A stretch of 64,000 nucleotides of DNA from an uncultured Bacilli bacterium (GTDB lineage: Bacteria > Bacillota_I > Bacilli_A > RF39 > UBA660), in contig CAKPHY010000006.1 of assembly GCA_934162285.1 (NCBI GenBank), forward strand, positions 288-64,287. Direction: 5' to 3'. The position numbers and the translations under genes were made by a program. The notes beneath the pieces were generated by a model. The model did no database searches. It had not been told where the DNA came from and was given only the letters and a program-made list of their open reading frames with translations. Shown here one piece after another: positions 9,072 to 26,018 of the stretch. Positions within the stretch are counted from its first letter, which is position 1, and every line of letters starts with the position of its first letter.

Positions 9072-10544
9072 TTATTTAGAACTAGAACTTACAGTTTTAG
9101 AAACTCCAGTATATTTATATCCTTGCTTAATTAATGTTTGATCATTACTTGATTTACTCCATTTAATTAAAGTTTCAGCTTCTGTTTTATGATAATCACG
9201 ATAACGATAATATGTTACATCAATATATTTTGGTTCAGTAATTGCACATTTAGTACCATTTAAAGTACCTGTTTTACATGAATAATTTTTTTCTTCAATT
9301 ACTTTACCATAAACAGTAGATGAAGTTGCTTTAATACAACTATCTCCAAATAATGTATAACTTTTATCTTCGCAATATTTGTTTGAAACAGCTGTTGCTG
9401 CTTTTGTTGAAGTTGAAGTTTTTACACATTCCTTACCAACTTCATTAATTCCACTTGCAGTATATCCACTTGGACAAGTTTGACTCTTAACTACTACAGT
9501 ACCAGTTGTTGTTTTATAACATTTTTTACCACTTAATTTGTAACCATCTGTTGAACAATAATAGTAATCAATTTTAGAAACTGTTTTACAAGGCCCATCT
9601 TCACAAGTGAATGAAACCTTTACATGAGGAGTAGCATCTTTCCATGAAGTTTTTGTACAAGTATTACTACTATTATATGTATAAGAACTATCTTCACAAC
9701 CATATGTTTTATCATATCCAACATAACTATATGTTTTCTTAACACATTTAGTTCCTTCTAAAGTATAATCAGGGTAGGCATTACAATTATAATTGTAACT
9801 TACTTTAGCAGGTTTAGTATCAGTTTCATTTTTAGTTGATACACATTTTTCTCCAACTAATGTATAACCAGTTTCACATTTTTTAGTTACTGTTACATCA
9901 GCATTAATATAAGAAGTAGTAGTACCATCTTGAACTTTTTCAGTCTTAGTTTCTACTTGTCTTGTACTAGTTGCTGTTACTTTAGTTTTACTCCAACTTG
10001 ACCAGTTAGTCCAACCTTCAGTTGCAGCTTTAATTTTTTTGTATTCATAAATTGTGTATTCAGTTGTTGTAGGAGTGTTATCTTTTTCACATAAACCACT
10101 ACCACAATAATTATAACAACCTACAGTTGTTTTAATTGTTTTAGTTACACCTGAACAAGTTAATGAAATAATCATTTCATATTCTTTATCTACTTTTGTT
10201 ACTTTAACATATGAAGCTTCAGTACTACATTTAGTACCATCACTACCAATTAAAGAAACTACCATTTGCTTTTCAATCATTTCACCTAAAGTCATCATTT
10301 TAGAATCTCCGTCTTTAGATGGCATTCTTGATACTGTATAGTATTCTCTAGCAGCATCTTTCATACTAAGCAAATTTTGATTAAATAATATTTCACTTGA
10401 TAAATCAGTGTTTGTTTCATTTTTAATATTATTGTTTAAATAATTCTTTGTTGGAAACAACCACATAAGAATAAAAATAACTAATAAAATAATTAAAACT
10501 TGAGCAATAAACCCAATTATACTAAATCCATTTCTTTCTTCCAT
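9072..10544 (-). CDS. N-terminally membrane-anchored protein with Cys-rich C-x3-Y-x-L-x-G-x-x-C repeats
   Basis: 490 aa. TM segment FSIIGFIAQVLIILLVIFILMWLF. Repeated modules CETGYTLVGEKCV, YPDYTLEGTKCV, CSTDGYKLSGKKCY, CPSGYTASG, CEDKSYTLFGDSCI, CKTGTLNGTKCA. The same module occurs in the 53078-54157 product. Confidence 0.65.
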   Translation of the reverse strand: MEERNGFSIIGFIAQVLIILLVIFILMWLFPTKNYLNNNIKNETNTDLSSEILFNQNLLSMKDAAREYYTVSRMPSKDGDSKMMTLGEMIEKQMVVSLIGSDGTKCSTEASYVKVTKVDKEYEMIISLTCSGVTKTIKTTVGCYNYCGSGLCEKDNTPTTTEYTIYEYKKIKAATEGWTNWSSWSKTKVTATSTRQVETKTEKVQDGTTTSYINADVTVTKKCETGYTLVGEKCVSTKNETDTKPAKVSYNYNCNAYPDYTLEGTKCVKKTYSYVGYDKTYGCEDSSYTYNSSNTCTKTSWKDATPHVKVSFTCEDGPCKTVSKIDYYYCSTDGYKLSGKKCYKTTTGTVVVKSQTCPSGYTASGINEVGKECVKTSTSTKAATAVSNKYCEDKSYTLFGDSCIKATSSTVYGKVIEEKNYSCKTGTLNGTKCAITEPKYIDVTYYRYRDYHKTEAETLIKWSKSSNDQTLIKQGYKYTGVSKTVSSSSK

Positions 10545-10570
10545 ATTCTTTTCCCCCTTAATTGCCGCAT

Positions 10571-10598
10571 ATTATAGCATTTTTTTAAATTTTGTCAA
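10571..10598 (-). promoter_or_regulatory. Sigma-A promoter TTGACA-N16-TGcTATAAT (proximal)
   Basis: -35 at 10598-10593 and -10 at 10576-10571. The leader GCGGCAATTAAGGGGGAAAAGAAT-ATG is nearly identical to that of the 7857 gene. Confidence 0.65.
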
Positions 10599-10646
10599 AT
10601 TGTAAATTGTGGCTACGTCTATCTATTACCCCACTAAACGCCACAT

Positions 10647-10674
10647 ATTATAGCATAAAAAAGCATTTTGTCAA
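10647..10674 (-). promoter_or_regulatory. Second, tandem TTGACA-N16-TGcTATAAT promoter copy (distal)
   Basis: -35 at 10674-10669 and -10 at 10652-10647. It directly abuts the stop of the sigma factor gene. Confidence 0.55.
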
Positions 10675-10675
10675 G

Positions 10676-11293
10676 TTAAACGCTTTTTTCCAAATATTTC
10701 TTTAATTTTGACTTAATTCTTTGAAGAGCATTATCAATAGCTTTAGGATCTTTTTCAAGTAATTCAGCTATTTCTTTATAATTAAAGCCATTAATACGCA
10801 TCACAAATACTTCTTCTTCTAAATTAGTCAATTCTTTTCTAAATTCATTAGTTATATCATCAATTCTTTCCTGATCAAACAAACAAACTTCGGGATTATA
10901 ACTATTATCTCCTAAGTGATCTTCAAGTTCTAAGTCTTCATCATAAGACGCATTTAAGGACACAGATTCATTTAATAAGCGATGTTTTTGCCTATTTGAA
11001 CCTATAACAAGACTTATAATTCTTCTTTTTATACAATGTTTAGCATACGTATAAAAAGAACTATCTTTATTATCACTATATGTTTTTATTGCTGAATCAA
11101 GACCAATCATTCCCTCTTGAACTAAATCATTTAATTCTAACCCACTATTCTTTGCATATTTTATTAAATCATTAGCAATAGAATTTATTAGGGGTGTGTA
11201 TTTATCAAACATTATGTTAGACGCTTCTTCATTATTTTCACTTATATAGAATAACAATTCATTGTCTTCATAATCGCGATGCATAACAATCAC
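10676..11293 (-). CDS. sigH: Sigma-70 family sigma factor, SigH-like
   Basis: LVQEGMIGLDSAIKTYSDNKDSSFYTYAKHCIKRRIISLVIGSNRQKHRLLNESVSL parallels the Bacillus SigH region 2 pattern VQEGMIGL...F..FA..CI.R.I......RQKH..LN. The mrnC-rlmB-sigH order matches Bacillus. The start is GTG 11293 or ATG 11284. Confidence 0.8.
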   Translation of the reverse strand: MIVMHRDYEDNELLFYISENNEEASNIMFDKYTPLINSIANDLIKYAKNSGLELNDLVQEGMIGLDSAIKTYSDNKDSSFYTYAKHCIKRRIISLVIGSNRQKHRLLNESVSLNASYDEDLELEDHLGDNSYNPEVCLFDQERIDDITNEFRKELTNLEEEVFVMRINGFNYKEIAELLEKDPKAIDNALQRIKSKLKKYLEKSV

Positions 11294-11990: not shown

Positions 11991-12371
11991 TTATTGTTCC
12001 TTTACTATTAATTCTAATATTTTATCTAAACGATCATATTGTTTATTTACATATAAATAGCCAATAATTGCTTCAAATGCCGTTGCATATTTATAAGTTA
12101 TTATATCTGTATTTTTAGGATGTCTCGTTCCTTTATGATTTCTAGCTCGATAACAAATATCTAATTCTTCTTTAGTTAAACTATTGATGCTTATTAAATA
12201 TTCTAACTTTTGTCTTTGAGCAACAGCCGAAACATACTTAATAGCTTCATGTTGAAGATTATTAACTTTAACTATACCCTTACTTACTAAATAATTACGA
12301 ATATATAATTCATAAACAGCATCACCAATATAAGCTAAAGTTAAAGAATTATAATCGATCAAAAGTAACAC
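11991..12371 (-). CDS. mrnC: Mini-ribonuclease 3
   Basis: 126 aa. LTLAYIGDAVYELYIRNYL is the RNase III-like signature. Size and position upstream of rlmB fit. Confidence 0.85.
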   Translation of the reverse strand: MLLLIDYNSLTLAYIGDAVYELYIRNYLVSKGIVKVNNLQHEAIKYVSAVAQRQKLEYLISINSLTKEELDICYRARNHKGTRHPKNTDIITYKYATAFEAIIGYLYVNKQYDRLDKILELIVKEQ

Positions 12372-13263
12372 CTCTTATAACACCTTGTTTAATATCAAGC
12401 ATTATCAAATTAATTACTTTATCATAATCAATTTCGCCACCTTTTATCAAACATCCGCGTTTTTTGCCAATTATTTCTAAAGTTTCGATAAAGTCATCAT
12501 TAACACTATCAATACCATATCTTTCTTTTAAAATATCAGGATATAGCTCATTTAATTTGCGAAGAGCATATTCACAGACATCATAAATTGGTAAAACTTC
12601 TTCTTTTATTGCAGTAAATGTAGCTAGATTAAAAGCAACATCACCAACGTCAATTTTAGGCCACAAAATTCCTGGACTATCCAATAACTCAATTTCTTCA
12701 TTAATTCTAATCCAATTCAATTCTTTAGTTACACCTGGTTTATTTCCAACATTAACAGCTTTTTTACCAACTAAGCGATTAATTAATGTTGACTTCCCTA
12801 CATTTGGTATACCAACAACTAAAACATGAGTTTTTTTCTTTAGTAAACCTTTCTCCAATCTATTTTCATTTTGTTCTTTCATTACTTCTTCAGTTAATTC
12901 GAGTAATGGTTTCATGTTAAATGTATGTTCAAGATCTAATGCAATTACCTTATAACCTTCATTTTCATAATGTTTCAACCATTTTTTAGTTTCTATTTTA
13001 TCAGCTAAATCAGCCTTATTCATAATTAAAATTCTTGGTTTATTACCTATATAATTATCTAAATCTGGTAATTTTGAAGATTTAGGAATACGTGCATCTA
13101 CTATTTCATATACTACATCTATTAAATCAATGTTTTCTGTAATCAATCTTTTAGTTTTAGCCATATGACCTGGATACCAGTTGATACTCGTTGATGGTAA
13201 ACTTTTTTCACTAACACTATTTTTCTTTTCTGCTCTCATTTTTCTTTTTTGGTACATATCCAT
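12349..13263 (-). CDS. rbgA: Ribosome biogenesis GTPase A (YlqF/RbgA, circularly permuted GTPase)
   Basis: INWYPGHMAKT, DARIP, NKADL, then GIPNVGKSTLINRL and LLDSPGILWP. Start set at ATG 13263 (RBS GGAAGTGA). Confidence 0.9.
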   Translation of the reverse strand: MDMYQKRKMRAEKKNSVSEKSLPSTSINWYPGHMAKTKRLITENIDLIDVVYEIVDARIPKSSKLPDLDNYIGNKPRILIMNKADLADKIETKKWLKHYENEGYKVIALDLEHTFNMKPLLELTEEVMKEQNENRLEKGLLKKKTHVLVVGIPNVGKSTLINRLVGKKAVNVGNKPGVTKELNWIRINEEIELLDSPGILWPKIDVGDVAFNLATFTAIKEEVLPIYDVCEYALRKLNELYPDILKERYGIDSVNDDFIETLEIIGKKRGCLIKGGEIDYDKVINLIMLDIKQGVIRGVTFDRL

Positions 13264-13264
13264 T

Positions 13265-14314
13265 TTAATCACTTCCATTCTCTATCATTCTTGTTTCATT
13301 TAAATATCTATTATAAAATTCATCCATTGAAGAAATATATTTTTGATCTTGTATAACTCTAAATTTTTCGTATTCTTTTTCTGCTTTTTCTACGGCTTCT
13401 TTATGAGATATGCCACTATTATTTAATACTTCTTTTCTTCTAAACTTTAATAAATCATCAGTTGCATTTATCCAATCCTTCATTGTCATAACATGTCTTT
13501 GTTTTGCTTCATCTTCAGCAAATACTAAAAACATATTTGTTAAATCTTTTAAATTATTCATTTCTTCTTCGTTTAAATAATTTTTTGCAATAACTACATC
13601 ATATTTATATATTAAACCATCAGGAGAATTTTTCCAATTAGTTAGTCCCATATGTTCTTTATCTGAGTTTGCTCTACTATATATTAATTCGGCAGCAGTA
13701 TGTCCGCTTATAGCATAGTGCAACTTATTTTGAACTATTTTAAAGAAAGTATATGCTTCTTCTGACTTAGGATTGTAATCTGCTGCTGTTGCAATAAATA
13801 AATCAGTGATTTTTTGATACGCCATTCTTTCACTTACTCTGATTGTTTTGATTCGTTCTAATAATTCATCAAAATATTTTGCATCATATTTATTTCCATT
13901 TATAAAACGTTCATCATTTAATACAAATCCCTTAGTCATATATTCTTTTAATATTTTTGTTGCCCATATTCTAAATTCTGTTGCTTTTTTAGAATTAATT
14001 CTATAACCCACAGCAATTATAGCATCAAGACTATAAACTTCAGTATTATAGTTTTTTCCGTCAGGTGCAGTTATTTCCATTTTGGAAACAACTGAATTTT
14101 TATCTAATTCGTTTTCTTCAAATATATTTTTTAAATGTTTTGATATTGCTGGTACACCAACCTCGAAAACTTTTGACATACCTTTTTGTGATAACCATAA
14201 AGTTTCATCTTTATAAATAGCATCTACTATAATATTACCTTCACTATTTTTATATATAATTAATTTATTATCTTCCATTAATAATCTCCTTTCCTTTAGT
14301 TTTTCATAAGTCAT
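13265..14314 (-). CDS. RhuM family virulence/DNA-binding-like protein
   Basis: 349 aa. The N-terminal segment LWLSQKGMSKVFEVGVPAISKHLKNIF...YSLDAIIAVGYRINSKKATEFRIWATKILKEY is the characteristic RhuM family pattern. Confidence 0.75.
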   Translation of the reverse strand: MTYEKLKERRLLMEDNKLIIYKNSEGNIIVDAIYKDETLWLSQKGMSKVFEVGVPAISKHLKNIFEENELDKNSVVSKMEITAPDGKNYNTEVYSLDAIIAVGYRINSKKATEFRIWATKILKEYMTKGFVLNDERFINGNKYDAKYFDELLERIKTIRVSERMAYQKITDLFIATAADYNPKSEEAYTFFKIVQNKLHYAISGHTAAELIYSRANSDKEHMGLTNWKNSPDGLIYKYDVVIAKNYLNEEEMNNLKDLTNMFLVFAEDEAKQRHVMTMKDWINATDDLLKFRRKEVLNNSGISHKEAVEKAEKEYEKFRVIQDQKYISSMDEFYNRYLNETRMIENGSD

Positions 14315-14735: not shown

Positions 14736-15131
14736 TTAATTATAAATGGTTTTTTCAGGTTCAACACCTAATGTTAATGTAGTATAGCCTTTATTTTTTA
14801 AATCTTCTTCCATAAATTTATACAATTTAGAAAAATATCCTTTTCCAACATATTCTTTGCTAGTCCTAAAAGCAGTCAAGTATGCAGTTGTATCATCTAC
14901 TAATTTATTACTATTTTGAACAATATCGCTAGTTAATACAGCAGTGGCTTCACATATTATTTGATCATTAAGTATTCCATAATAAGGAATAATTTTACCA
15001 TTTTTATAATTCTTAATGTTTTGTTCTTTCCAAATAATCCAATTTTCTTTTTTTGTTGCTATCAATATTTCATAATCCCATTTTTTATTCATTTCTTCAA
15101 CAGTAGCAATTTTGCATATATAGTTTTCCAT
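14736..15131 (-). CDS. GNAT family N-acetyltransferase, possibly C-terminally truncated
   Basis: 131 aa. FRTSKEYVGKGYFSKLYKFMEEDLKNKGYTTLTLGVEP resembles the GNAT acetyl-CoA (Q/R-x-x-G-x-G/A) region. The ORF ends right after this, where the last GNAT strands would be expected. Confidence 0.6.
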   Translation of the reverse strand: MENYICKIATVEEMNKKWDYEILIATKKENWIIWKEQNIKNYKNGKIIPYYGILNDQIICEATAVLTSDIVQNSNKLVDDTTAYLTAFRTSKEYVGKGYFSKLYKFMEEDLKNKGYTTLTLGVEPEKTIYN

Positions 15132-17490: not shown

Positions 17491-17516
17491 AAAAAAAATA
17501 GGCTTATAAAAGCCTA
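17491..17516 (-). terminator. Intrinsic terminator closing the 21963-17533 operon
   Basis: Minus strand TAGGCTT-ttat-AAGCCTA followed by eight T. Confidence 0.7.
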
Positions 17517-17532
17517 CTTGTTATAATATAAT

Positions 17533-19068
17533 TTAATTTAACTTTTTTACCATAAAAATTTCATCTGGTAATTCATTGGTTACTTCAAAACCTAGTTTTT
17601 GATAACAATGAATAGCTCTTAAGTTATTTTTAAAAACTTTCAAGTTTACTTGAGTTAATTTTAAATGGTTAAAAGCATAATTCAAAATAGTTTCGATTGC
17701 TTCTGTACCTAAATGCTTATCTTGTTGATCTTTAGTTATGACAATTCCAAGTTCTACTGAATTATCTGCATCCATTAGTTCAATATTACCAATATAATCA
17801 TTCGTATCTTTTAGCATCATTGAAAAACATAAAGCATTAGTGTTTAATTTATCATTCACCCACTTTTTTTCATCTTCAAAAGAATAATTTTTAGGATTCC
17901 GGCTTAAATAACAAGAAATTTCAGGATCATTGACCATTTCTAGATATTCTCTTATTAAACTTTCACTTAAATTAACAAAATCAATATTTTTAGAAGAAAA
18001 AACTTTATTTAAATGTAACATATCTACTTTTAAACAATTATAAATTTTTCTTGAAATTGAAGCACGCATTAATATGTTTTTTCTATTATCTCTTGATGGA
18101 TGAATTCTATTAGTTAACATTATAATTATAACCTTATTAAGTAGATCAACAGAAATGCTTGGACCTGTAAAACCTGAAAATGATAGTGTTTGAGTATTGC
18201 CAAGAATAACATTAGGATTGTTTCCAATAACCCAAGTACAAGAACGATCGGTATTATTTTTAGAATTAAAAGTTTGTTTAGTTAACCACATATCGATTAA
18301 TTCTTCACTTAAATAACGTTTGCCATTAAACATTCCTTTATTTAAAATCATCGAAGCAAAATTATAAAGATCAGAAGTATTACTAAATAAACCCGCATTA
18401 CCAGCAACACCATTTAAAGAACAAGCTTTTTCGTCATGAACTACACCTTTAACTAATCCACGATTAAGGGTAACTTCTGTTGCTGCTATATTATCCTTAA
18501 ACTTGGGATTAAAACAAGTATTGTTCATTTCCAAAGGAACTTTTACTTCGATATTAAAAACTTCATCTAATGGTTTTTGATAAACTTTTTCAATTATTAA
18601 ACCAAGAAACATATAACCAATACAAGAGTAATTGAATTCTTTGGTTTCTCTAGTTGAAGCATATAATTTTTCTAAGGCTTCTTCTTTAGTAATTATATCT
18701 TTACTTGAAAAATCACTTACTAATCCTGAAATATGATTTAATAGATCATATATTGTAATATCTTCATACTTAAAATCTGGTAAATATTTTTTTACATTAT
18801 CAGTCAATTTTATTTTTTTCTGATCGATCATTCTAAATATAATAGTATTAGTGCAAACTATTTTAGTTAAAGATGCTATATCATATAAAGTATTAGAATC
18901 TGCTAATTCTTCTTTTTCAACTATTCGATTGTTTTCTAATCCATACTTTGTTTTATAACCTAAGGTATTAGAAAATATTTCTGCATCTTTACTAACTAAA
19001 TAACTTACACTAGGAGTTGCTCCTGACTCAATTAATTCATTAAATATATTATCTAGCATTACTATCAA
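17533..19068 (-). CDS. Beta-lactamase-fold serine hydrolase fused to a C-terminal GNAT (RimJ/RimL-like) acetyltransferase domain
   Basis: 511 aa. The S-x-x-K motif is in YDIASLTKIV; GFTGPSISVD lies near the end of the hydrolase part. The C-terminal approximately 150 aa contain IGNIELMD...LGIVITKDQQDKHLGTEAIETILNYAFNHLKL..VNLKVFKNNLRAIHCYQKLGFE. Overlaps the upstream gene by 20 nt. Confidence 0.7.
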   Translation of the reverse strand: MIVMLDNIFNELIESGATPSVSYLVSKDAEIFSNTLGYKTKYGLENNRIVEKEELADSNTLYDIASLTKIVCTNTIIFRMIDQKKIKLTDNVKKYLPDFKYEDITIYDLLNHISGLVSDFSSKDIITKEEALEKLYASTRETKEFNYSCIGYMFLGLIIEKVYQKPLDEVFNIEVKVPLEMNNTCFNPKFKDNIAATEVTLNRGLVKGVVHDEKACSLNGVAGNAGLFSNTSDLYNFASMILNKGMFNGKRYLSEELIDMWLTKQTFNSKNNTDRSCTWVIGNNPNVILGNTQTLSFSGFTGPSISVDLLNKVIIIMLTNRIHPSRDNRKNILMRASISRKIYNCLKVDMLHLNKVFSSKNIDFVNLSESLIREYLEMVNDPEISCYLSRNPKNYSFEDEKKWVNDKLNTNALCFSMMLKDTNDYIGNIELMDADNSVELGIVITKDQQDKHLGTEAIETILNYAFNHLKLTQVNLKVFKNNLRAIHCYQKLGFEVTNELPDEIFMVKKLN

Positions 19069-20302
19069 TCTCCGTTTTACTTAAATTAATTAACTTTTGG
19101 GTATTTTTTATAATATTATTTATTAATTCTTTAGTTTGATATTTATCAAGTAATTTCATATCTTCATAAACAGTATAAATAAGCATTCTTAAATCAAGAT
19201 ATTTAATATTTTCTAATTCTTTATAATACTTTTTTACATAATTAAATATATTTTGATAAATTTCTATATTTTCAATTAAAGAATTATTATATCGCCAAGG
19301 TTCTTCTTGAGTAATATATAATTTTCTAAACTCAAAATCAATTGGTGCTACTAAAGCATCCTTAAAATCGATTAATTTTAATGAACCATTATTGTAAATA
19401 ATATTATTAAATTGCAAATTATTATGAATATAAGCAAAATGGTTATCACTTAAACAAATATCATAAAGTTTTAATGATTCTAAAATTAACAAATAATCTT
19501 CTTGATTAAATAATGATTTATATTCGATAGCTTTATTTTTTACTTCATTTTTTATTTTACTTGACCAAGAATTAATTGGTTTAACATCAGTGTGATGAAT
19601 ACTTTTAAGAGCTAAAACTAATTTTTGAATTGTTTTTTCTCTTTCATCTTCATTCATTTTTAACCAAGAAAAATATAATGATTTTCCAGGTACTTTTTCT
19701 AATATTTCATACATGTAATCAAACTTAAACTTAGAAATATCATATCTATATAATTTAGGAATAATTTCTGAATTTTTATTTAATTGATAGAATTCTATTT
19801 CATTTTTTATTTTTTCCTCTAAAAAATGATTTAAACATATTTTTATAATATATTGATCATTTACTTCAAAAATAATGTTATTTATATTACTATCAATTTC
19901 TTTAATTTTTTCAACAGTTGAAAATATATCAATATTAGCTAATGCTATATTTTTACCTAATTCTAATCTTTCAACAACTAAATTTTTAACAACTTCAAAA
20001 ACTTCTACAATTATTTTTTTATTTGGTTCAAAAGTTGGATCAATACTTTCGAAAATAGATAAATATTTGGCACGCCATTTTTCTAAACTATAGCCTTCTA
20101 ATTTAGCTAATTCTTCAGTCATTTCCTTAAATGGTATTACATGGTATTCTTTTAATTGAATTACACATGCTGCTTTTTCATTAGGAAAATAAATTGTCCT
20201 TTCTTCATTTATTATCGGAGTTTTATTTTCATATATTGATGTTATTGCTTTTATTTTTCCATCTAAAATTGCTTTTATTAAATTTTCGTCTAAATTTTTC
20301 AT
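19049..20302 (-). CDS. ASCH domain fused to an aminoglycoside-phosphotransferase/protein-kinase-like domain lacking the catalytic Asp
   Basis: 417 aa. The N-terminal approximately 105 aa (ILDGKIKAITS...EELAKLEGYSLEKWRAKY) are ASCH-like. The C-terminal part has the APH layout, but the H-x-D-x4-N loop reads HNNLQFNN (19403-19426). The IDFKD metal-binding motif is kept. The start overlaps the stop of the upstream gene (ATGA). Confidence 0.65.
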   Translation of the reverse strand: MKNLDENLIKAILDGKIKAITSIYENKTPIINEERTIYFPNEKAACVIQLKEYHVIPFKEMTEELAKLEGYSLEKWRAKYLSIFESIDPTFEPNKKIIVEVFEVVKNLVVERLELGKNIALANIDIFSTVEKIKEIDSNINNIIFEVNDQYIIKICLNHFLEEKIKNEIEFYQLNKNSEIIPKLYRYDISKFKFDYMYEILEKVPGKSLYFSWLKMNEDEREKTIQKLVLALKSIHHTDVKPINSWSSKIKNEVKNKAIEYKSLFNQEDYLLILESLKLYDICLSDNHFAYIHNNLQFNNIIYNNGSLKLIDFKDALVAPIDFEFRKLYITQEEPWRYNNSLIENIEIYQNIFNYVKKYYKELENIKYLDLRMLIYTVYEDMKLLDKYQTKELINNIIKNTQKLINLSKTEIDSNAR

Positions 20303-21963
20303 CTTGTCATACCTCTTTTATTTTCAAAATATTCATGGATTATTTGGGAACTATTTACAATTAATAAAGCGAAATCTTTTAATTCTACTCGTGCTGAAAA
20401 TGTTAGATTTCCTTCATAAATGTCTTTAAATGTTATAAATATTTGAGTATTTTCATCTTCAGTCTTAGCTTCAACCTCAAAGTTACCATGAGAAATAGAA
20501 TTTCTAATGCCTTCAATTATTCTTTCGTTTCTTAAGTAAGTTTGGTTATTATTGAGATAGTTTTTAGCTATAGTCAAATCACTATTAATTTGATTAAGTT
20601 TTGCTGTTGTTAGTTCTTTAGATTGAATTAACTCATATAAATTGTTTTCAACTTTAGCTAATGCAACTTGATTATGTTTAGTTTTTAAAGCATCTCTACT
20701 ATTAGTGTACTTATCAATATTAGCTTGAATATTGTTTATTTCATTTTCTCTTCCTCTTTTTTGATTTTCTAATTCTTGAATTTTATTAGTATCTATTTCC
20801 ATACAATTCACATGAACTTTGGATAAATCTAAACAACTATAATCTAAACCATTACAAGCTTCAGCAGTGAATTTATTAGTATTTTCATAAAATTTATCAA
20901 GTCCATAAGAAAATAAAGAATTAAACATCGCGATAGCACTAGCAACTAAATTATCATAATTCATATATATGTTGCCGTATTCTTTACTTATTTCACTAGA
21001 AATTAAGCTAGGATTAACTGTACGATTTTTATATACAATTTCTAAAAATATTAAATTTGATAGATTTGCAGCAATTGGATTAAACCTATTGAAGCCATTA
21101 ACTACACGATCTAGTTCCCTTCCTATTATTTCTACTTGTGAAGCATAATCACGAGTTGCTGTATTATTAACTAAGAATTCAGCTAAAGAATCTAGTTGCA
21201 TATTTTTAATAGATTCTTCACGATAATCAAAATCATACTCAGGAGCTACAAGCTTTTTAAACTTTTCATAATAAGCATAATAATCACTCTTATCTTTATT
21301 GTTAGCAATTAAAAGTTCTAATGATTGTTTAATATTTTCATTGATCAAGCTTCCATCTTTGCGTTTTAAAGTAATTTTAACCTTTTTAAATTTATGCAAA
21401 AATCTTAACATTTCATCTTTACTTTTGATAGATGCATGACGATAAGTTTCGATTTTATTATTCAAAATATACTTTCTTTCATAAGTGTCACTATTATTAA
21501 CTTTGCTAAAACTTTTTAAAGCTGATGATACAAACGTCGATAATCTTATTATATTTAAAGAAATAGGAGTATTATTATGTTCAATTATAATTTTGCTATT
21601 TGAAAAATCGGTTATAAAATCACCATGGCCGATTTTATTTCTAATTACAGCCACTACTTCCGAAGCATTACTAAAATGCGAATTACCTATAGCATAACCA
21701 TTTGTTTCTTTTCTAGCTATATAATCAACTGAATTTTCTAATTCTTTTGTAAATATTCTAGAAGAATAACCGGCTTCTTTAGAAACTAAACTTTCCTTTA
21801 TACTTAATAAAATTGTACTTATCAAACCAATTCGTGCTGCCATATTTACTTCTTTAGTAATTATAGTTTTATCTGGAGTAGTTCTTGAAAAAAGATCAAT
21901 AAGGAAGCTATAAAAACTATAGTTTCCTATATAATATTCCAAAAGCATATTTTCATCTTTCAT
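20299..21963 (-). CDS. Hypothetical protein with two RNxxxH (HEPN-type) motifs and a central coiled coil; candidate RNase effector
   Basis: Start set at ATG 21963 (RBS AGGTGA), because the track start at 21978 lies 3 nt from the -10 box. IRNKIGHGDF is at 21625-21642 and IRNSISHGNF at 20488-20505. Coiled-coil stretch NKIQELENQKRGRENEINNIQANIDKY... The CDS itself is solid; the HEPN assignment rests on motifs only. Confidence 0.5.
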   Translation of the reverse strand: MKDENMLLEYYIGNYSFYSFLIDLFSRTTPDKTIITKEVNMAARIGLISTILLSIKESLVSKEAGYSSRIFTKELENSVDYIARKETNGYAIGNSHFSNASEVVAVIRNKIGHGDFITDFSNSKIIIEHNNTPISLNIIRLSTFVSSALKSFSKVNNSDTYERKYILNNKIETYRHASIKSKDEMLRFLHKFKKVKITLKRKDGSLINENIKQSLELLIANNKDKSDYYAYYEKFKKLVAPEYDFDYREESIKNMQLDSLAEFLVNNTATRDYASQVEIIGRELDRVVNGFNRFNPIAANLSNLIFLEIVYKNRTVNPSLISSEISKEYGNIYMNYDNLVASAIAMFNSLFSYGLDKFYENTNKFTAEACNGLDYSCLDLSKVHVNCMEIDTNKIQELENQKRGRENEINNIQANIDKYTNSRDALKTKHNQVALAKVENNLYELIQSKELTTAKLNQINSDLTIAKNYLNNNQTYLRNERIIEGIRNSISHGNFEVEAKTEDENTQIFITFKDIYEGNLTFSARVELKDFALLIVNSSQIIHEYFENKRGMTR

Positions 21964-21980
21964 TTTGATCACCTGCATAT

Positions 21981-22008
21981 ATTATAGCATTTTTTTATAG
22001 TATTTAAA
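21981..22008 (-). promoter_or_regulatory. Extended -10 promoter (TGcTATAAT) of the three-gene operon
   Basis: TATAAT at 21986-21981 on the minus strand, preceded by TGC. The -35 (TTTAAA) is weak, 16 nt upstream. Confidence 0.5.
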
Positions 22009-22153
22009 AAGTATCAAAAAGATCCTTTAATCAAGTTGATAAATTGTCGTGTAACTATTAGCATCAATTTCAGCCTTTTGTTAGCAAGGGCAAAGAAACA
22101 CTTGAAATATCTTTTCTATTATAAAATCTAATTTATTAAAACAAATATTTCAA

Positions 22154-22184
22154 CAAAAAAAGCAACCTATTTATTATGGTTGCC
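22154..22184 (-). terminator. Intrinsic terminator downstream of the collagen-like gene
   Basis: Minus strand GGCAACC-ataataaata-GGTTGC followed by eight T. Confidence 0.6.
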
Positions 22185-22393
22185 TTCATATTTTAGAACT
22201 TGATTACAAACAATTTTTTAAGCTATACTCAATTATTTTTTGATAATCTTCTTCTAATATTATTAAATAAATTGGATTTTGTTAGATGTAATAAATATTT
22301 TCTTAAAAGACAAGGTAATTAAGCTTAATTCAGACTGAGTTTTATTTTGAATAAAATCCAAAGTAATAACAATTTATCAATTAATCAAATATT

Positions 22394-23227
22394 TTAACCT
22401 GCTGCTCCAGTTGGTCCAGTTGGCCCAGTCGGTCCAGTTGGTCCAGTTGGTCCAGTTGCGCCTTCAGTCCCTGCTACGCCTTGTGGTCCTGTTGGTCCAG
22501 TTGCTCCGGCTTCTCCTGCTGCTCCCGTTGGTCCAGTTGGCCCAGTCGGTCCAGTTGGTCCTGTTGGTCCAGTTGCTCCGACTTCTCCTGCTACGCCTTG
22601 TGGTCCTGTTGGTCCAGTTGCTCCGGCTTCTCCTGCTGCTCCCGTTGGTCCTGTTGGTCCAGTTGCTCCGGCTTCTCCTGCTACGCCTTGTGGTCCTGTT
22701 GGTCCAGTTACTCCGGCTTCTCCTGCTGCTCCCGTTGGTCCTGTTGGTCCAGTTGCTCCGGCTTCTCCTGCTACGCCTTGTGGTCCTGTTGGTCCAGTTG
22801 CTCCTGTCGCACCTGTCGCTCCAGCCGGTATTGTTAAATTCAATACAAAATTAGGACTAGTTCCGGTTATTGTTGCAACAACTGGTGTTCCAGGATCACC
22901 TGTTGTTACTGTTCCTATAGTTAAATTAGGAGATGCTCCAGTTTCTCCGGTTGGGCCGGTTGCTCCGGTTGGTCCGATTGCTCCGATTGCTCCGGTTGCT
23001 CCGGTTGCTCCGGTTGGTCCGGTTGGTCCGGTTGCTCCGGTTGGTCCGGTTGGTCCGGTTGGTCCGGTTGCTCCGGTTGGTCCTGTTGCTCCAGTTGCTC
23101 CAGTTGCTCCAGTTGCACCACCAGATGGTCCGGTTGGCCCTGTTGGGCCAATTAACACCATATTTTGTTTACATCGTAATCCTTCTGCTAAAATTTCTTG
23201 AATTTTTTTAGAATATCCGTTATTCAT
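22394..23227 (-). CDS. Collagen-like triple-helix repeat (G-X-T) protein, BclA-like
   Basis: 277 aa. Two blocks of [10 protein letters not shown]-type repeats are separated by a 45-aa non-repeat segment ([38 protein letters not shown]). The protein ends inside the repeat. Good RBS (AAGGAGAA). The gene is strikingly GC-rich relative to its surroundings. Confidence 0.85.
22474..22800. repeat. Tandem 90-bp repeat (about 3.5 copies) built from 9-bp GXT units
   Basis: The string ctacgccttgtggtcctgttggtccag recurs at 22474, 22591, 22681 and 22771. The last three are spaced exactly 90 bp apart. A second 9-bp-unit block (ggtccggtt / gctccggtt) spans 22925-23150. Confidence 0.85.
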
Positions 23228-24707: not shown

Positions 24708-26018
24708 CTATTTAGCTTGTTCTTTAGCTAATAGTTCTTCATATTTATCTTTATAAACATAAATAGCTTTACTACTCATAAATAGTATAACAGCATTTTT
24801 GTGTTTTAATAATTTATCAACAGTTTCAAGACTTATATGTTCACAATTATTTGTTTTATCCATAATATCTTTATATGTTACGCCATCATAACCTTCTTCA
24901 GGGCGATCAGTATAAATATCTGTTATATAAGCTTTATCTGCTAAATTTAAAGCATCAGCAAACTCTTGAGCAAATATTTTAGCTCTTGATAATGTGTGAA
25001 CCATAAGTACTGCTACTATTTCTTTATCTGGATACTTTTGGCGAGCACCTTTAATAGTAACTTTAACTTCTGTTGGATGATGAGCATAGTCATCTATAGT
25101 AACAATATCTCCTATTACTTTTTCTTTAAATCTTCTTTTAGCACCTTCAAATGTTTTTAAGTACTTAGCAACTTCACGAGCATCTAATCTTTCATAATAG
25201 CAAACACCGATTACAGCTAATGAATTAAGTAACATATGTTTTCCATATAAAGGTAAATCAAAATGACCATAATAATTATCTTCTACGAAAACGTCAAAAC
25301 TTGTTCCTTCGTTATGATATTCTACATTACGTGCTTGAATATCATTATCATCATCTAAACCATAAAAGAAAATTGGGGGTTTTACTTCTAAAGAATGAGT
25401 ATATGGATCATCACCACAAGCAATAATCATCTTTTCAGCATGATTAGCATATTCTTGATAAGCATCAACAATATCTGAAATATCTTTATAATAATCCATA
25501 TGATCTAATTCAATATTAGTTATAATAGCATAATAAGGTTTGTAAGCTAAAAAATGTCTTTGCCATTCACATGCTTCTAAAGCAAAATATTTGTTATCTT
25601 TATTAGCATAGCCAGTTCCATCTCCTATTAAATAATTACAACCTGTTATATTTTTTAGAACATGAGATAGCATCGAAGTTGTTGTTGTTTTACCATGGCA
25701 GCCAGCAATAGTAATTGTTTCAAATCTTTCTGTCAATTTGGCAATCATTTCTTGATATGAATATATTTTCAAACCAAGTTCTTTTGCTCGTACAACCTCT
25801 TCATGTGTATCTTTAAAGGCATTACCTTTAACAATTATCATGTCTTCCTTAATATTATCAGCACTGAAAGGTAAAATTTTTATTCCAGCAGCTCTCACTT
25901 CATCTTCTGTAAATAAGTGTTCATCGATATCACTACCTTGAACTTCAAAACCTAATCCATGAAGTATTAAAGCAAGTGAAGCCATACCAGACCCTTTTAT
26001 TCCAATAAAATGATACAT
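24708..26018 (-). CDS. murC: UDP-N-acetylmuramate--L-alanine ligase
   Basis: MYHFIGIKGSGMASLALILHGLGFEVQGSD, GCHGKTTTTSML and DDYAHHPTEV are MurC hallmarks. Confidence 0.95.
   Translation of the reverse strand: MYHFIGIKGSGMASLALILHGLGFEVQGSDIDEHLFTEDEVRAAGIKILPFSADNIKEDMIIVKGNAFKDTHEEVVRAKELGLKIYSYQEMIAKLTERFETITIAGCHGKTTTTSMLSHVLKNITGCNYLIGDGTGYANKDNKYFALEACEWQRHFLAYKPYYAIITNIELDHMDYYKDISDIVDAYQEYANHAEKMIIACGDDPYTHSLEVKPPIFFYGLDDDNDIQARNVEYHNEGTSFDVFVEDNYYGHFDLPLYGKHMLLNSLAVIGVCYYERLDAREVAKYLKTFEGAKRRFKEKVIGDIVTIDDYAHHPTEVKVTIKGARQKYPDKEIVAVLMVHTLSRAKIFAQEFADALNLADKAYITDIYTDRPEEGYDGVTYKDIMDKTNNCEHISLETVDKLLKHKNAVILFMSSKAIYVYKDKYEELLAKEQAK

Follow-up and report, generated by a model that had tools for sequence, protein, structure and literature searches.

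A predicted double-HEPN, RNase-like protein encoded by a variably present gene of gut Bacillota

The locus and its transcription unit

In a 64,000-nt segment of a Bacillota chromosome (hereafter the window, i.e. the whole stretch of DNA that was analysed; 26% G+C), three co-directional open reading frames (ORFs), called here A, B and C, occupy positions 17533-21978 of the minus strand. Gene A (20299..21963, minus strand), the main subject of this work, encodes a putative double-HEPN protein of 554 aa, predicted to be a ribonuclease (RNase), and appears to be a variably present cargo gene. Gene B (19049..20302, minus strand) encodes a 417-aa fusion of an ASCH domain with an APH-type kinase domain. 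Gene C (17533..19068, minus strand) encodes a fusion of a beta-lactamase-fold domain (PBP4B-like) with a GNAT domain, 511 aa long when counted from a TTG codon.

The three genes are preceded by a putative sigma-70-type promoter with an extended -10 element (21981..22008, minus strand), composed of TTTAAA, a 16-nt spacer and TG-n-TATAAT, and by a ribosome-binding site (RBS), AGGTGA (21969..21974, minus strand), located 5 nt before the ATG at 21963. When counted from its first ATG, the ORF of A extends over 20299..21978. Its true start is almost certainly not this codon, but the ATG at 21963 (554 aa), because AGGTGA is found 5 nt upstream of the latter and because the homologous proteins begin with MKDEN or MKKDN. 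The stop codon of A and the start codon of B overlap as ATGA, while B and C overlap by 20 nt if C starts at TTG 19068 and by 11 nt if it starts at an ATG. In a related locus, L104, C is called three codons later, at an in-frame ATG (508 aa); the equivalent position in the window, counted by hand from this gene call, is 19059, which is the likely start of C. A putative intrinsic terminator (17496..17519, minus strand; 10-bp stem followed by a T-run) closes the transcription unit. No leader or regulatory RNA was found within the A-B-C unit by comparison with Rfam. A preliminary description of this DNA had already reported the ORFs, the ATGA and 20-nt overlaps, the unit's own extended -10 promoter and its terminator, and our inspection agrees with it on all of them.

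A small family with two conserved motifs

Protein A displays two RNxxxH motifs at opposite ends of the chain, RNKIGH (R108..H113 in the 554-aa numbering; 21625..21642, minus strand) and RNSISH (R487..H492; 20488..20505, minus strand), exactly at the coordinates first given for them. The ORF segments of the window that reach 100 aa total 20,439 residues and contain the RNxxxH pattern only three times, two of them in A. The pair therefore exceeds chance.

An indexed search identified 197 relatives of A, and an exhaustive search with a hidden Markov model (HMM) against 1.84 billion cluster representatives identified 309. Among the matches listed (150 of 309), most are full-length proteins of 530-607 aa. 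A pattern scan recovered the family in only 19 of 185,579 species genomes. The named records correspond to "Bacilli", "Tenericutes" or "Clostridiales" metagenome-assembled genomes (MAGs), and the metagenome records that carry a title are human-gut assemblies. A is thus a member of a small unannotated family of proteins of about 540-600 aa from uncultured human-gut Bacillota, mostly "Bacilli" or "Tenericutes" MAGs. Scans of the whole protein against Pfam, NCBIfam and PADLOC returned nothing useful, and the silence of PADLOC is in line with the initial remark that the gene triad was not recognised as a described defence system.

The conservation of both motifs among homologues, which the preliminary description left to be checked, is very high. 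In 117 full-length representatives selected at 50% identity, motif 1 retains its R in 113 sequences, its N in 104 and its H in 114, and motif 2 in 116, 109 and 115 sequences, respectively. Moreover, R108, H113, R487 and H492 are the sole invariant columns in an alignment of 41 sequences with down to 19% identity to the window protein.

Internal duplication and predicted structure

The N-terminal and C-terminal halves of A match each other in profile comparisons (hhalign probability 94.5-95.7%, E-values from 8e-8 to 9e-9, 71 columns), whereas the control comparison of the halves with the middle region gives 0.5%. The aligned stretch comprises the motif helix, the strands that follow it and a closing helix. 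The halves therefore result from an internal duplication, as had been suspected from the resemblance of the segments that follow the two motifs.

In the AlphaFold2 (AF2) model of A (mean predicted local distance difference test score, pLDDT, 78.5; predicted template-modelling score, pTM, 0.71), each motif, which reads R-N-x-x-x-H-G, closes a helix at its C-terminus (105-117 for motif 1 and 479-496 for motif 2, 559-aa numbering) and is followed by a three-strand beta meander and then by a final helix. Four regions can be delimited in this model. The N-terminal HEPN-like half (approximately residues 1-153; 21505..21963, minus strand), delimited from AF2, hhalign and weak Pfam matches, would be made of helices, with RNKIGH at a helix end, the three-strand meander and a helix. 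The central region (approximately residues 160-390; 20794..21486, minus strand) combines alpha/beta and helical elements in the model, without recognisable family. A long antiparallel helical hairpin of coiled-coil-like aspect (approximately residues 393-472; 20548..20787, minus strand) leads into the C-terminal half; its helices (398-434 and 437-477 in the 559-aa numbering) are modelled with a pLDDT of 85-97, and its profile matches are of coiled-coil type only. Finally, the C-terminal HEPN-like core (approximately residues 474-553; 20302..20544, minus strand), delimited from AF2 and weak Pfam matches, would contain a helix ending in RNSISH, the meander and a terminal helix. The modelled segments thus include the helical or coiled-coil stretch that had been announced between the motifs. 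From the sequence comparisons and the model taken together, A is very likely a single chain with two HEPN-type halves derived from an internal duplication, with helical and coiled-coil segments between them.

Resemblance of A to HEPN domains

In HEPN domains, the catalytic motif is located where helix-3 ends and the loop to helix-4 begins, with a polar residue following the arginine (PMC3710099). Across the family, A displays the Rx4-6H pattern with a polar residue (N, D or H) after R, and in the AF2 model the motifs take the corresponding place at the end of the predicted helix 3. HEPN helix-2 bears a conserved acidic residue, typically within an Ex3[KR] motif (PMC3710099); in A, the near-invariant K56 and E57 (554-aa numbering) are located in a long helix of the N-terminal half (42-65), and the C-terminal half has no clear equivalent.

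Profile matches point in the same direction. The C-terminal 160 residues of the window protein match PF18736 (HEPN pEK499_p136) with an E-value of 5e-4 and 20.2 bits, below the cutoff of 26.6. Among 30 diverse C-half fragments, 9 match HEPN_MAE_28990 and 6 match pEK499_p136, the other matches being mostly coiled-coil noise. The 30 diverse N-half fragments match RiboL-PSP (3), MAE_28990 (3), pEK499_p136 (2), Abi_2 (1) and Apea (1). All these fragment matches are sub-threshold. HEPN families are nevertheless the only ones matched by more than one N-half fragment and the only families other than coiled coils found in more than a few C-half fragments. We consider it likely that A is, as predicted here, a double-HEPN, RNase-like protein.

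B and C as an older pair

B possesses an ASCH domain (E 6.6e-11) and an APH domain (E 1.5e-8), and C a Beta-lactamase domain (E 1.9e-35; PBP4B-like, E 5e-43) and an Acetyltransf_3 (GNAT) domain (E 1.9e-18). The preliminary description had interpreted A, B and C as a three-gene system, in which B and C would sense, license or restrain A. From 103 A-encoding loci screened by tblastn for B and C, these genes adjoin A only in L023-L026, which belong to the same species as the window (96-98% identity); the co-occurrence of the three genes in other genomes was looked for and not found outside this species.

The L104 locus aligns collinearly with the window, at 81-90% nucleotide identity, and encodes B (86% identical) and C (88% identical), but A is absent. 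In this locus, the promoter sequence (88% identity) directly precedes B, the RBS AGGTGA is identical, and the same AGGTGATCAAA ribosome-binding region and ATG run straight into B (MKNLDENLIK). A is therefore an exact insertion or deletion between the expression signals and the start of B. Short similar stretches, ATGAAA and GAYGAAAAT, are present at both junctions of A. The predicted promoter at 21981..22008 would thus drive A-B-C in the window and B-C alone in L104.

More distant homologues of B (46-49% identity; L105-L108) have housekeeping genes as neighbours and lack both A and C in their vicinity. B belongs to a family of ASCH-APH fusions in which one member is fused to GNAT and several to Peptidase_S51; the GNAT fusion ties B to chemistry of the C type and not to an RNase. 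In the relatives concerned (P0317, P0313 and P0326), it is the kinase domain that is also fused to GNAT (ASCH-APH-GNAT, 562 aa) or to Peptidase_S51 (about 565-640 aa), which points to a small-molecule- or peptide-modifying role for B-C. Most likely, B and C are enzymes that modify small molecules and have no relation to the function of A. As the comparison of loci indicates, B-C is an older independent unit, with A merely on the same transcript. Since A, B and C are not co-conserved, the three-gene system, with the proposed roles of B and C as sensors, licensers or restrainers of A, is not supported, on the very ground that the preliminary description had named.

Gene A at other loci

The A loci were grouped into 31 lineages (at least 60% identity within each), between which the neighbours of A vary. 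A census of 112 neighbours, taken within two genes on either side of A, revealed mostly housekeeping genes, including those for tRNA synthetases, RecG, PBP2, a P-type ATPase, YebC and a U32 peptidase. The helicase matches correspond to the RecG genes. No neighbour cluster is common to more than 5 of the 31 lineages, and no McrBC-type, MNT or cas effector family is found among the 25 most frequent neighbour families listed.

The presence of A also varies at a locus other than that of the window. L112 displays the order c5-A-NUDIX (c5 is described below), while the collinear L109 (82% identity) carries c5 only; the two loci differ by a clean 2.1-kb insertion or deletion comprising A and the NUDIX gene, with no A remnant. 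In addition, tandem A paralogues are present in three lineages (L037:5968-9324, L066:5968-9301 and L074:2828-5961). At the two loci checked, the members of a pair are 5-10 nt apart, and downstream of the pairs there are often Amidoligase_2-like genes (about 570 aa). Such paralogues could form hetero-oligomeric double-HEPN pairs. Because of the difference between L112 and L109, the tandem paralogues and the differing neighbours, A can be described, on comparative grounds, as a variably present single-gene accessory cargo of gut Bacillota.

At two loci (L002:5950-6927 and L031:4950-5927), a gene encoding a retron-type reverse transcriptase (RT; PADLOC RT_Ec107-like, E 5e-125) is located 74 nt upstream of the A homologue and is preceded by a 208-nt structured gap. 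No Rfam RNA was found at the RT-A locus. For this reason, and because the close relatives L029 and L033 are devoid of RT, a role of A as the effector of the adjoining RT was rejected as a general link.

A kinase-fold neighbour in four lineages

In four lineages, a gene called here c5 (245 aa) is located directly upstream of A and overlaps it in three of them (L001:6247-6990, L006:6286-7023, L034:5205-5990 and L037:5193-5936, all outside the window). Its family includes 236 relatives of about 245 aa, which are unannotated, and displays the motifs GxGxxG, VxK, DxxxN and ID. No Pfam match and no PDB sequence match were obtained for c5. Its AF2 model (pLDDT 92.8) leads to protein kinases in Foldseek (best E 8.4e-7; 1092 hits at E <= 1e-3). 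The predicted fold of c5 is that of a minimal protein kinase, an assignment settled by the structure search alone, as sequence-level tests did not show it. No specific similarity was detected between c5 and the kinase domain of B (hhalign 0.5%). L001 displays the order kinase-fold gene, A and a 131-aa stand-alone ASCH gene (L001:8924-9319, about 250 nt downstream of A), which brings together the domains that A and B combine in the window.

Proposed role of A and alternative explanations

Taken as a whole, the best explanation is that A is a duplicated double-HEPN protein, carried as single-gene cargo and acting as a conflict-type RNase; we give it a probability of roughly 60%. By analogy with HEPN proteins, its role would most likely be of the abortive infection or toxin-like type. 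The two Rx4H motifs would pair in cis into one composite, metal-independent endoribonuclease site, as in Cas13, which is what the enzymology of HEPN domains suggests (PMC3710099). The central region is proposed to be a regulatory or sensor region and, with the helical hairpin, may keep A inactive until a signal is received. Activated A would then degrade cellular or invader RNA. In the window, A appears to sit exactly between the pre-existing promoter and RBS and the start codon of the older B-C operon, so that it would borrow the expression signals of B-C.

Several results weigh against this explanation. With regard to genomic context, the sole clear defence gene among the close neighbours in the 31 lineages is the retron-type RT of one species. 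No evident antitoxin or immunity gene was found next to A, and no nucleotidyltransferase is present among the recurrent neighbour families listed. Relatives of A are absent from IMG/VR (pattern scan) and from GenBank phages and PLSDB plasmids (tblastn), and A has no PADLOC match. The synteny around A is conserved in three species (L003, L008 and L009), which suggests vertical inheritance in that clade, and L104 may have lost A by deletion, in place of an insertion in the window. With regard to the HEPN assignment, no HEPN Pfam family is matched at its gathering score and the whole protein matches none. Foldseek, run with the full-length model, retrieved nothing at E <= 1e-3 in PDB or BFVD and did not bring out a four-helix up-down bundle. 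Moreover, nothing but coiled-coil noise emerged when PDB sequences were searched by phmmer and by profiles, starting from A, the N half or the C half. Regarding the dual-HEPN claim of the preliminary description, the conservation of the motifs, the duplication, the placement at helix ends and the recurring HEPN matches therefore stand in its favour, while the curated Pfam thresholds were not reached and no similar structure emerged from Foldseek.

The contextual points are those to be cited for A being a housekeeping, RNA-processing or structural coiled-coil protein in gut Bacilli with small genomes, one that plays no part in conflict or defence: its neighbours are mostly core genes, the synteny is kept across three species, there are neither phage or plasmid copies nor a PADLOC match, and A is co-directional with its neighbours and tightly packed inside host operons. 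We nevertheless hold this explanation to be unlikely. A is present or absent between close relatives at two independent loci, exists as tandem paralogues and occurs in highly variable contexts, and its family is of small size and patchy distribution (309 representatives out of 1.84 billion proteins; 19 of 185,579 species genomes).

It has also been envisaged that A works with adjacent kinase-fold and ASCH proteins, which would sense, license or restrain the RNase in the manner of Ire1/RNase L or of Las1-Grc3. Ire1 and RNase L are fusions of a kinase with a KEN domain. Las1-Grc3 offers a precedent for a HEPN nuclease acting with a kinase (PMC10942766). At the loci described above, this idea can draw on the apparent co-transcription of A, B and C with overlapping reading frames, on the position of c5 upstream of A in four lineages (overlapping in three), on its motifs and its modelled protein-kinase fold, and on L001, which repeats the domain set of A plus B. 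However, each kinase-fold gene is found without A at the same syntenic site (B in L104, c5 in L109), a kinase-fold or ASCH neighbour is missing from at least 25 of the 31 A lineages, and C never accompanies A outside the species of the window. The lack of specific similarity between c5 and the kinase domain of B also argues against a common partnership, and the position of c5 in the four lineages may go back to a single ancestral arrangement. A partnership of this kind is quite improbable.

Least probable of all, and in our opinion very unlikely, is that the RNxxxH(G) motifs belong to a duplicated non-HEPN domain (a non-catalytic or differently catalytic helix/beta module) with motif-driven false HEPN matches, as the sub-threshold Pfam scores, the absence of any HEPN structure from the Foldseek and PDB-profile matches and a post-motif beta meander foreign to the canonical all-helical HEPN core might suggest, since several distinct HEPN families and no other enzyme family recur in both halves, the HEPN description is matched by the position of the motif, by the polar residue that follows R and perhaps by the K-E pair in the preceding long helix, and some HEPN families, Csx1 for example, are known to carry beta-hairpin inserts (PMC3710099).

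Comparison with known systems

By sequence, the nearest known relatives of the double-HEPN protein A appear to be the pEK499_p136 (PF18736) and MAE_28990 (PF18737) HEPN families, with sub-threshold similarity. These families are predicted RNases of abortive infection (Abi), restriction-modification (R-M) and conflict contexts (Anantharaman et al. 2013, PMC3710099). They share with A the R-N-x3-H motif at a helix end, the weak profile similarity that recurs in both halves and a stand-alone organisation with no fused sensor of known type. In contrast, A has two HEPN copies per chain, a meander after each motif, a central region of about 230 residues and a long hairpin, and the R-M, ParB or ART/Macro neighbours reported for these families (PMC3710099) are absent from the neighbour families listed around A.

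By architecture, the nearest proteins are Cas13 and the CnuE effectors of CoCoNuT type III-A. Cas13 also has two Rx4H HEPN motifs, one towards each end of a single chain. Unlike Cas13, A has halves that are clear duplicates of each other and no recognisable lobe for the binding of CRISPR RNA, and the window contains neither a CRISPR array nor a cas gene, as noted from the start; the only arrays in it are collagen-type coding repeats. PADLOC, which is expected to include Cas13 models, gave no Cas13 match for A, and none was found among the top neighbour families listed. To our knowledge, A, with its 554 aa, is shorter than any Cas13. CnuE is composed of an N-terminal winged helix-turn-helix (wHTH), a coiled coil and two HEPN domains, the second with a shortened RxH motif; it is encoded with McrB/McrC-like genes and a helicase, and is predicted to target RNA (PMC11090510). 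It resembles A by the combination of a coiled-coil segment and two HEPN domains in a single protein. However, both motifs of A are full RNxxxH motifs, A has no wHTH match, and the 25 most frequent neighbour families listed (112 neighbours, 31 lineages) include no McrBC-type family.

Other HEPN proteins can be compared with A by their autonomy. The mycobacteriophage Butters protein gp57r is constitutively expressed, non-toxic and sufficient for defence (bioRxiv 10.1101/2023.01.03.522681). Like A, gp57r and AbiJ/AbiU2 are stand-alone HEPN proteins with no obvious antitoxin, but they possess one HEPN domain and are prophage- or plasmid-borne, whereas A was not found on phage or plasmid records. 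HEPN-MNT and the other HEPN toxin-antitoxin pairs differ from A by a small adjacent antitoxin gene, for which no conserved equivalent was found in the 31 lineages. As for Las1-Grc3 (PMC10942766) and Ire1/RNase L, the likeness lies in a HEPN gene that adjoins a kinase-fold gene (B here, c5 in four lineages), while the kinases next to A are separate proteins that are also found without it, with no conserved pairing across the family.

Other features of the window

The neighbours of the A-B-C unit in the window include genes encoding RhuM (E 2e-96), MazG (E 2e-8) and an XRE helix-turn-helix protein, and the region is framed by an rbgA-like ORF (12349-13278) and a murC-like ORF (24708-26018), both identified by reading their translations. 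The accessory context between rbgA and murC put forward in the preliminary description is thus recovered for these five genes. The GNAT domain of a 131-aa ORF at 14736-15131 (minus strand) is limited to its N-terminal part (positions 55-103 of the 116 in the profile); the ORF probably represents a truncated gene, in keeping with a decaying accessory patch.

A gene encoding a collagen-like protein with G-x-T repeats is located at 22394-23227 (minus strand) and contains periodic repeats of 9, 45, 90 and 117 nt. Strains differ in the repeat region of this gene (identity of about 70% in L026). We take this protein to resemble the BclA-type exosporium proteins. In L104, the collagen-like gene is separated from the B-C promoter by about 4.8 kb of additional DNA (L104:1044-5893, compared with 21955-23031 in the window), which encodes a DUF5305 protein, an S26 signal peptidase-like protein and a 626-aa protein of no recognised type. 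The whole stretch is therefore a hot spot of gene gain and loss. Elsewhere in the window, two 31-nt direct repeats, 81% identical and spaced by 76 nt, are found at 10550-10656, in the intergenic region between the ORFs 9072-10544 and 10676-11293.

Significance

A is an unannotated variant inside the well-known HEPN superfamily, and neither a new kind of system nor part of a three-gene system. An operon with overlapping reading frames gave here no indication of a functional system, and it was the comparison with a sister genome that showed that A had slotted into, or been lost from, the leader of an existing operon.

A bolder proposal, which we offer tentatively as an outside possibility, is that the family consists of autonomous, guide-independent, single-chain double-HEPN RNases of gut Bacillota, i.e. 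a minimal Cas13-like catalytic scaffold that arose by internal duplication and serves as a one-gene abortive-infection effector, and that in some lineages it may be controlled by an adjacent minimal kinase, as a bacterial counterpart of the kinase-gated HEPN RNases.

If A is an active RNase, it would combine two HEPN domains in one chain of about 550 aa, a compact architecture that lies outside CRISPR, and would show that a two-HEPN enzyme can arise by simple internal duplication. The HEPN proteins listed for human-gut Bacillota would then gain a family so far unannotated, with consequences for the question of how Cas13-like effectors evolved and for the search for one-gene defence or toxin modules located outside defence islands.

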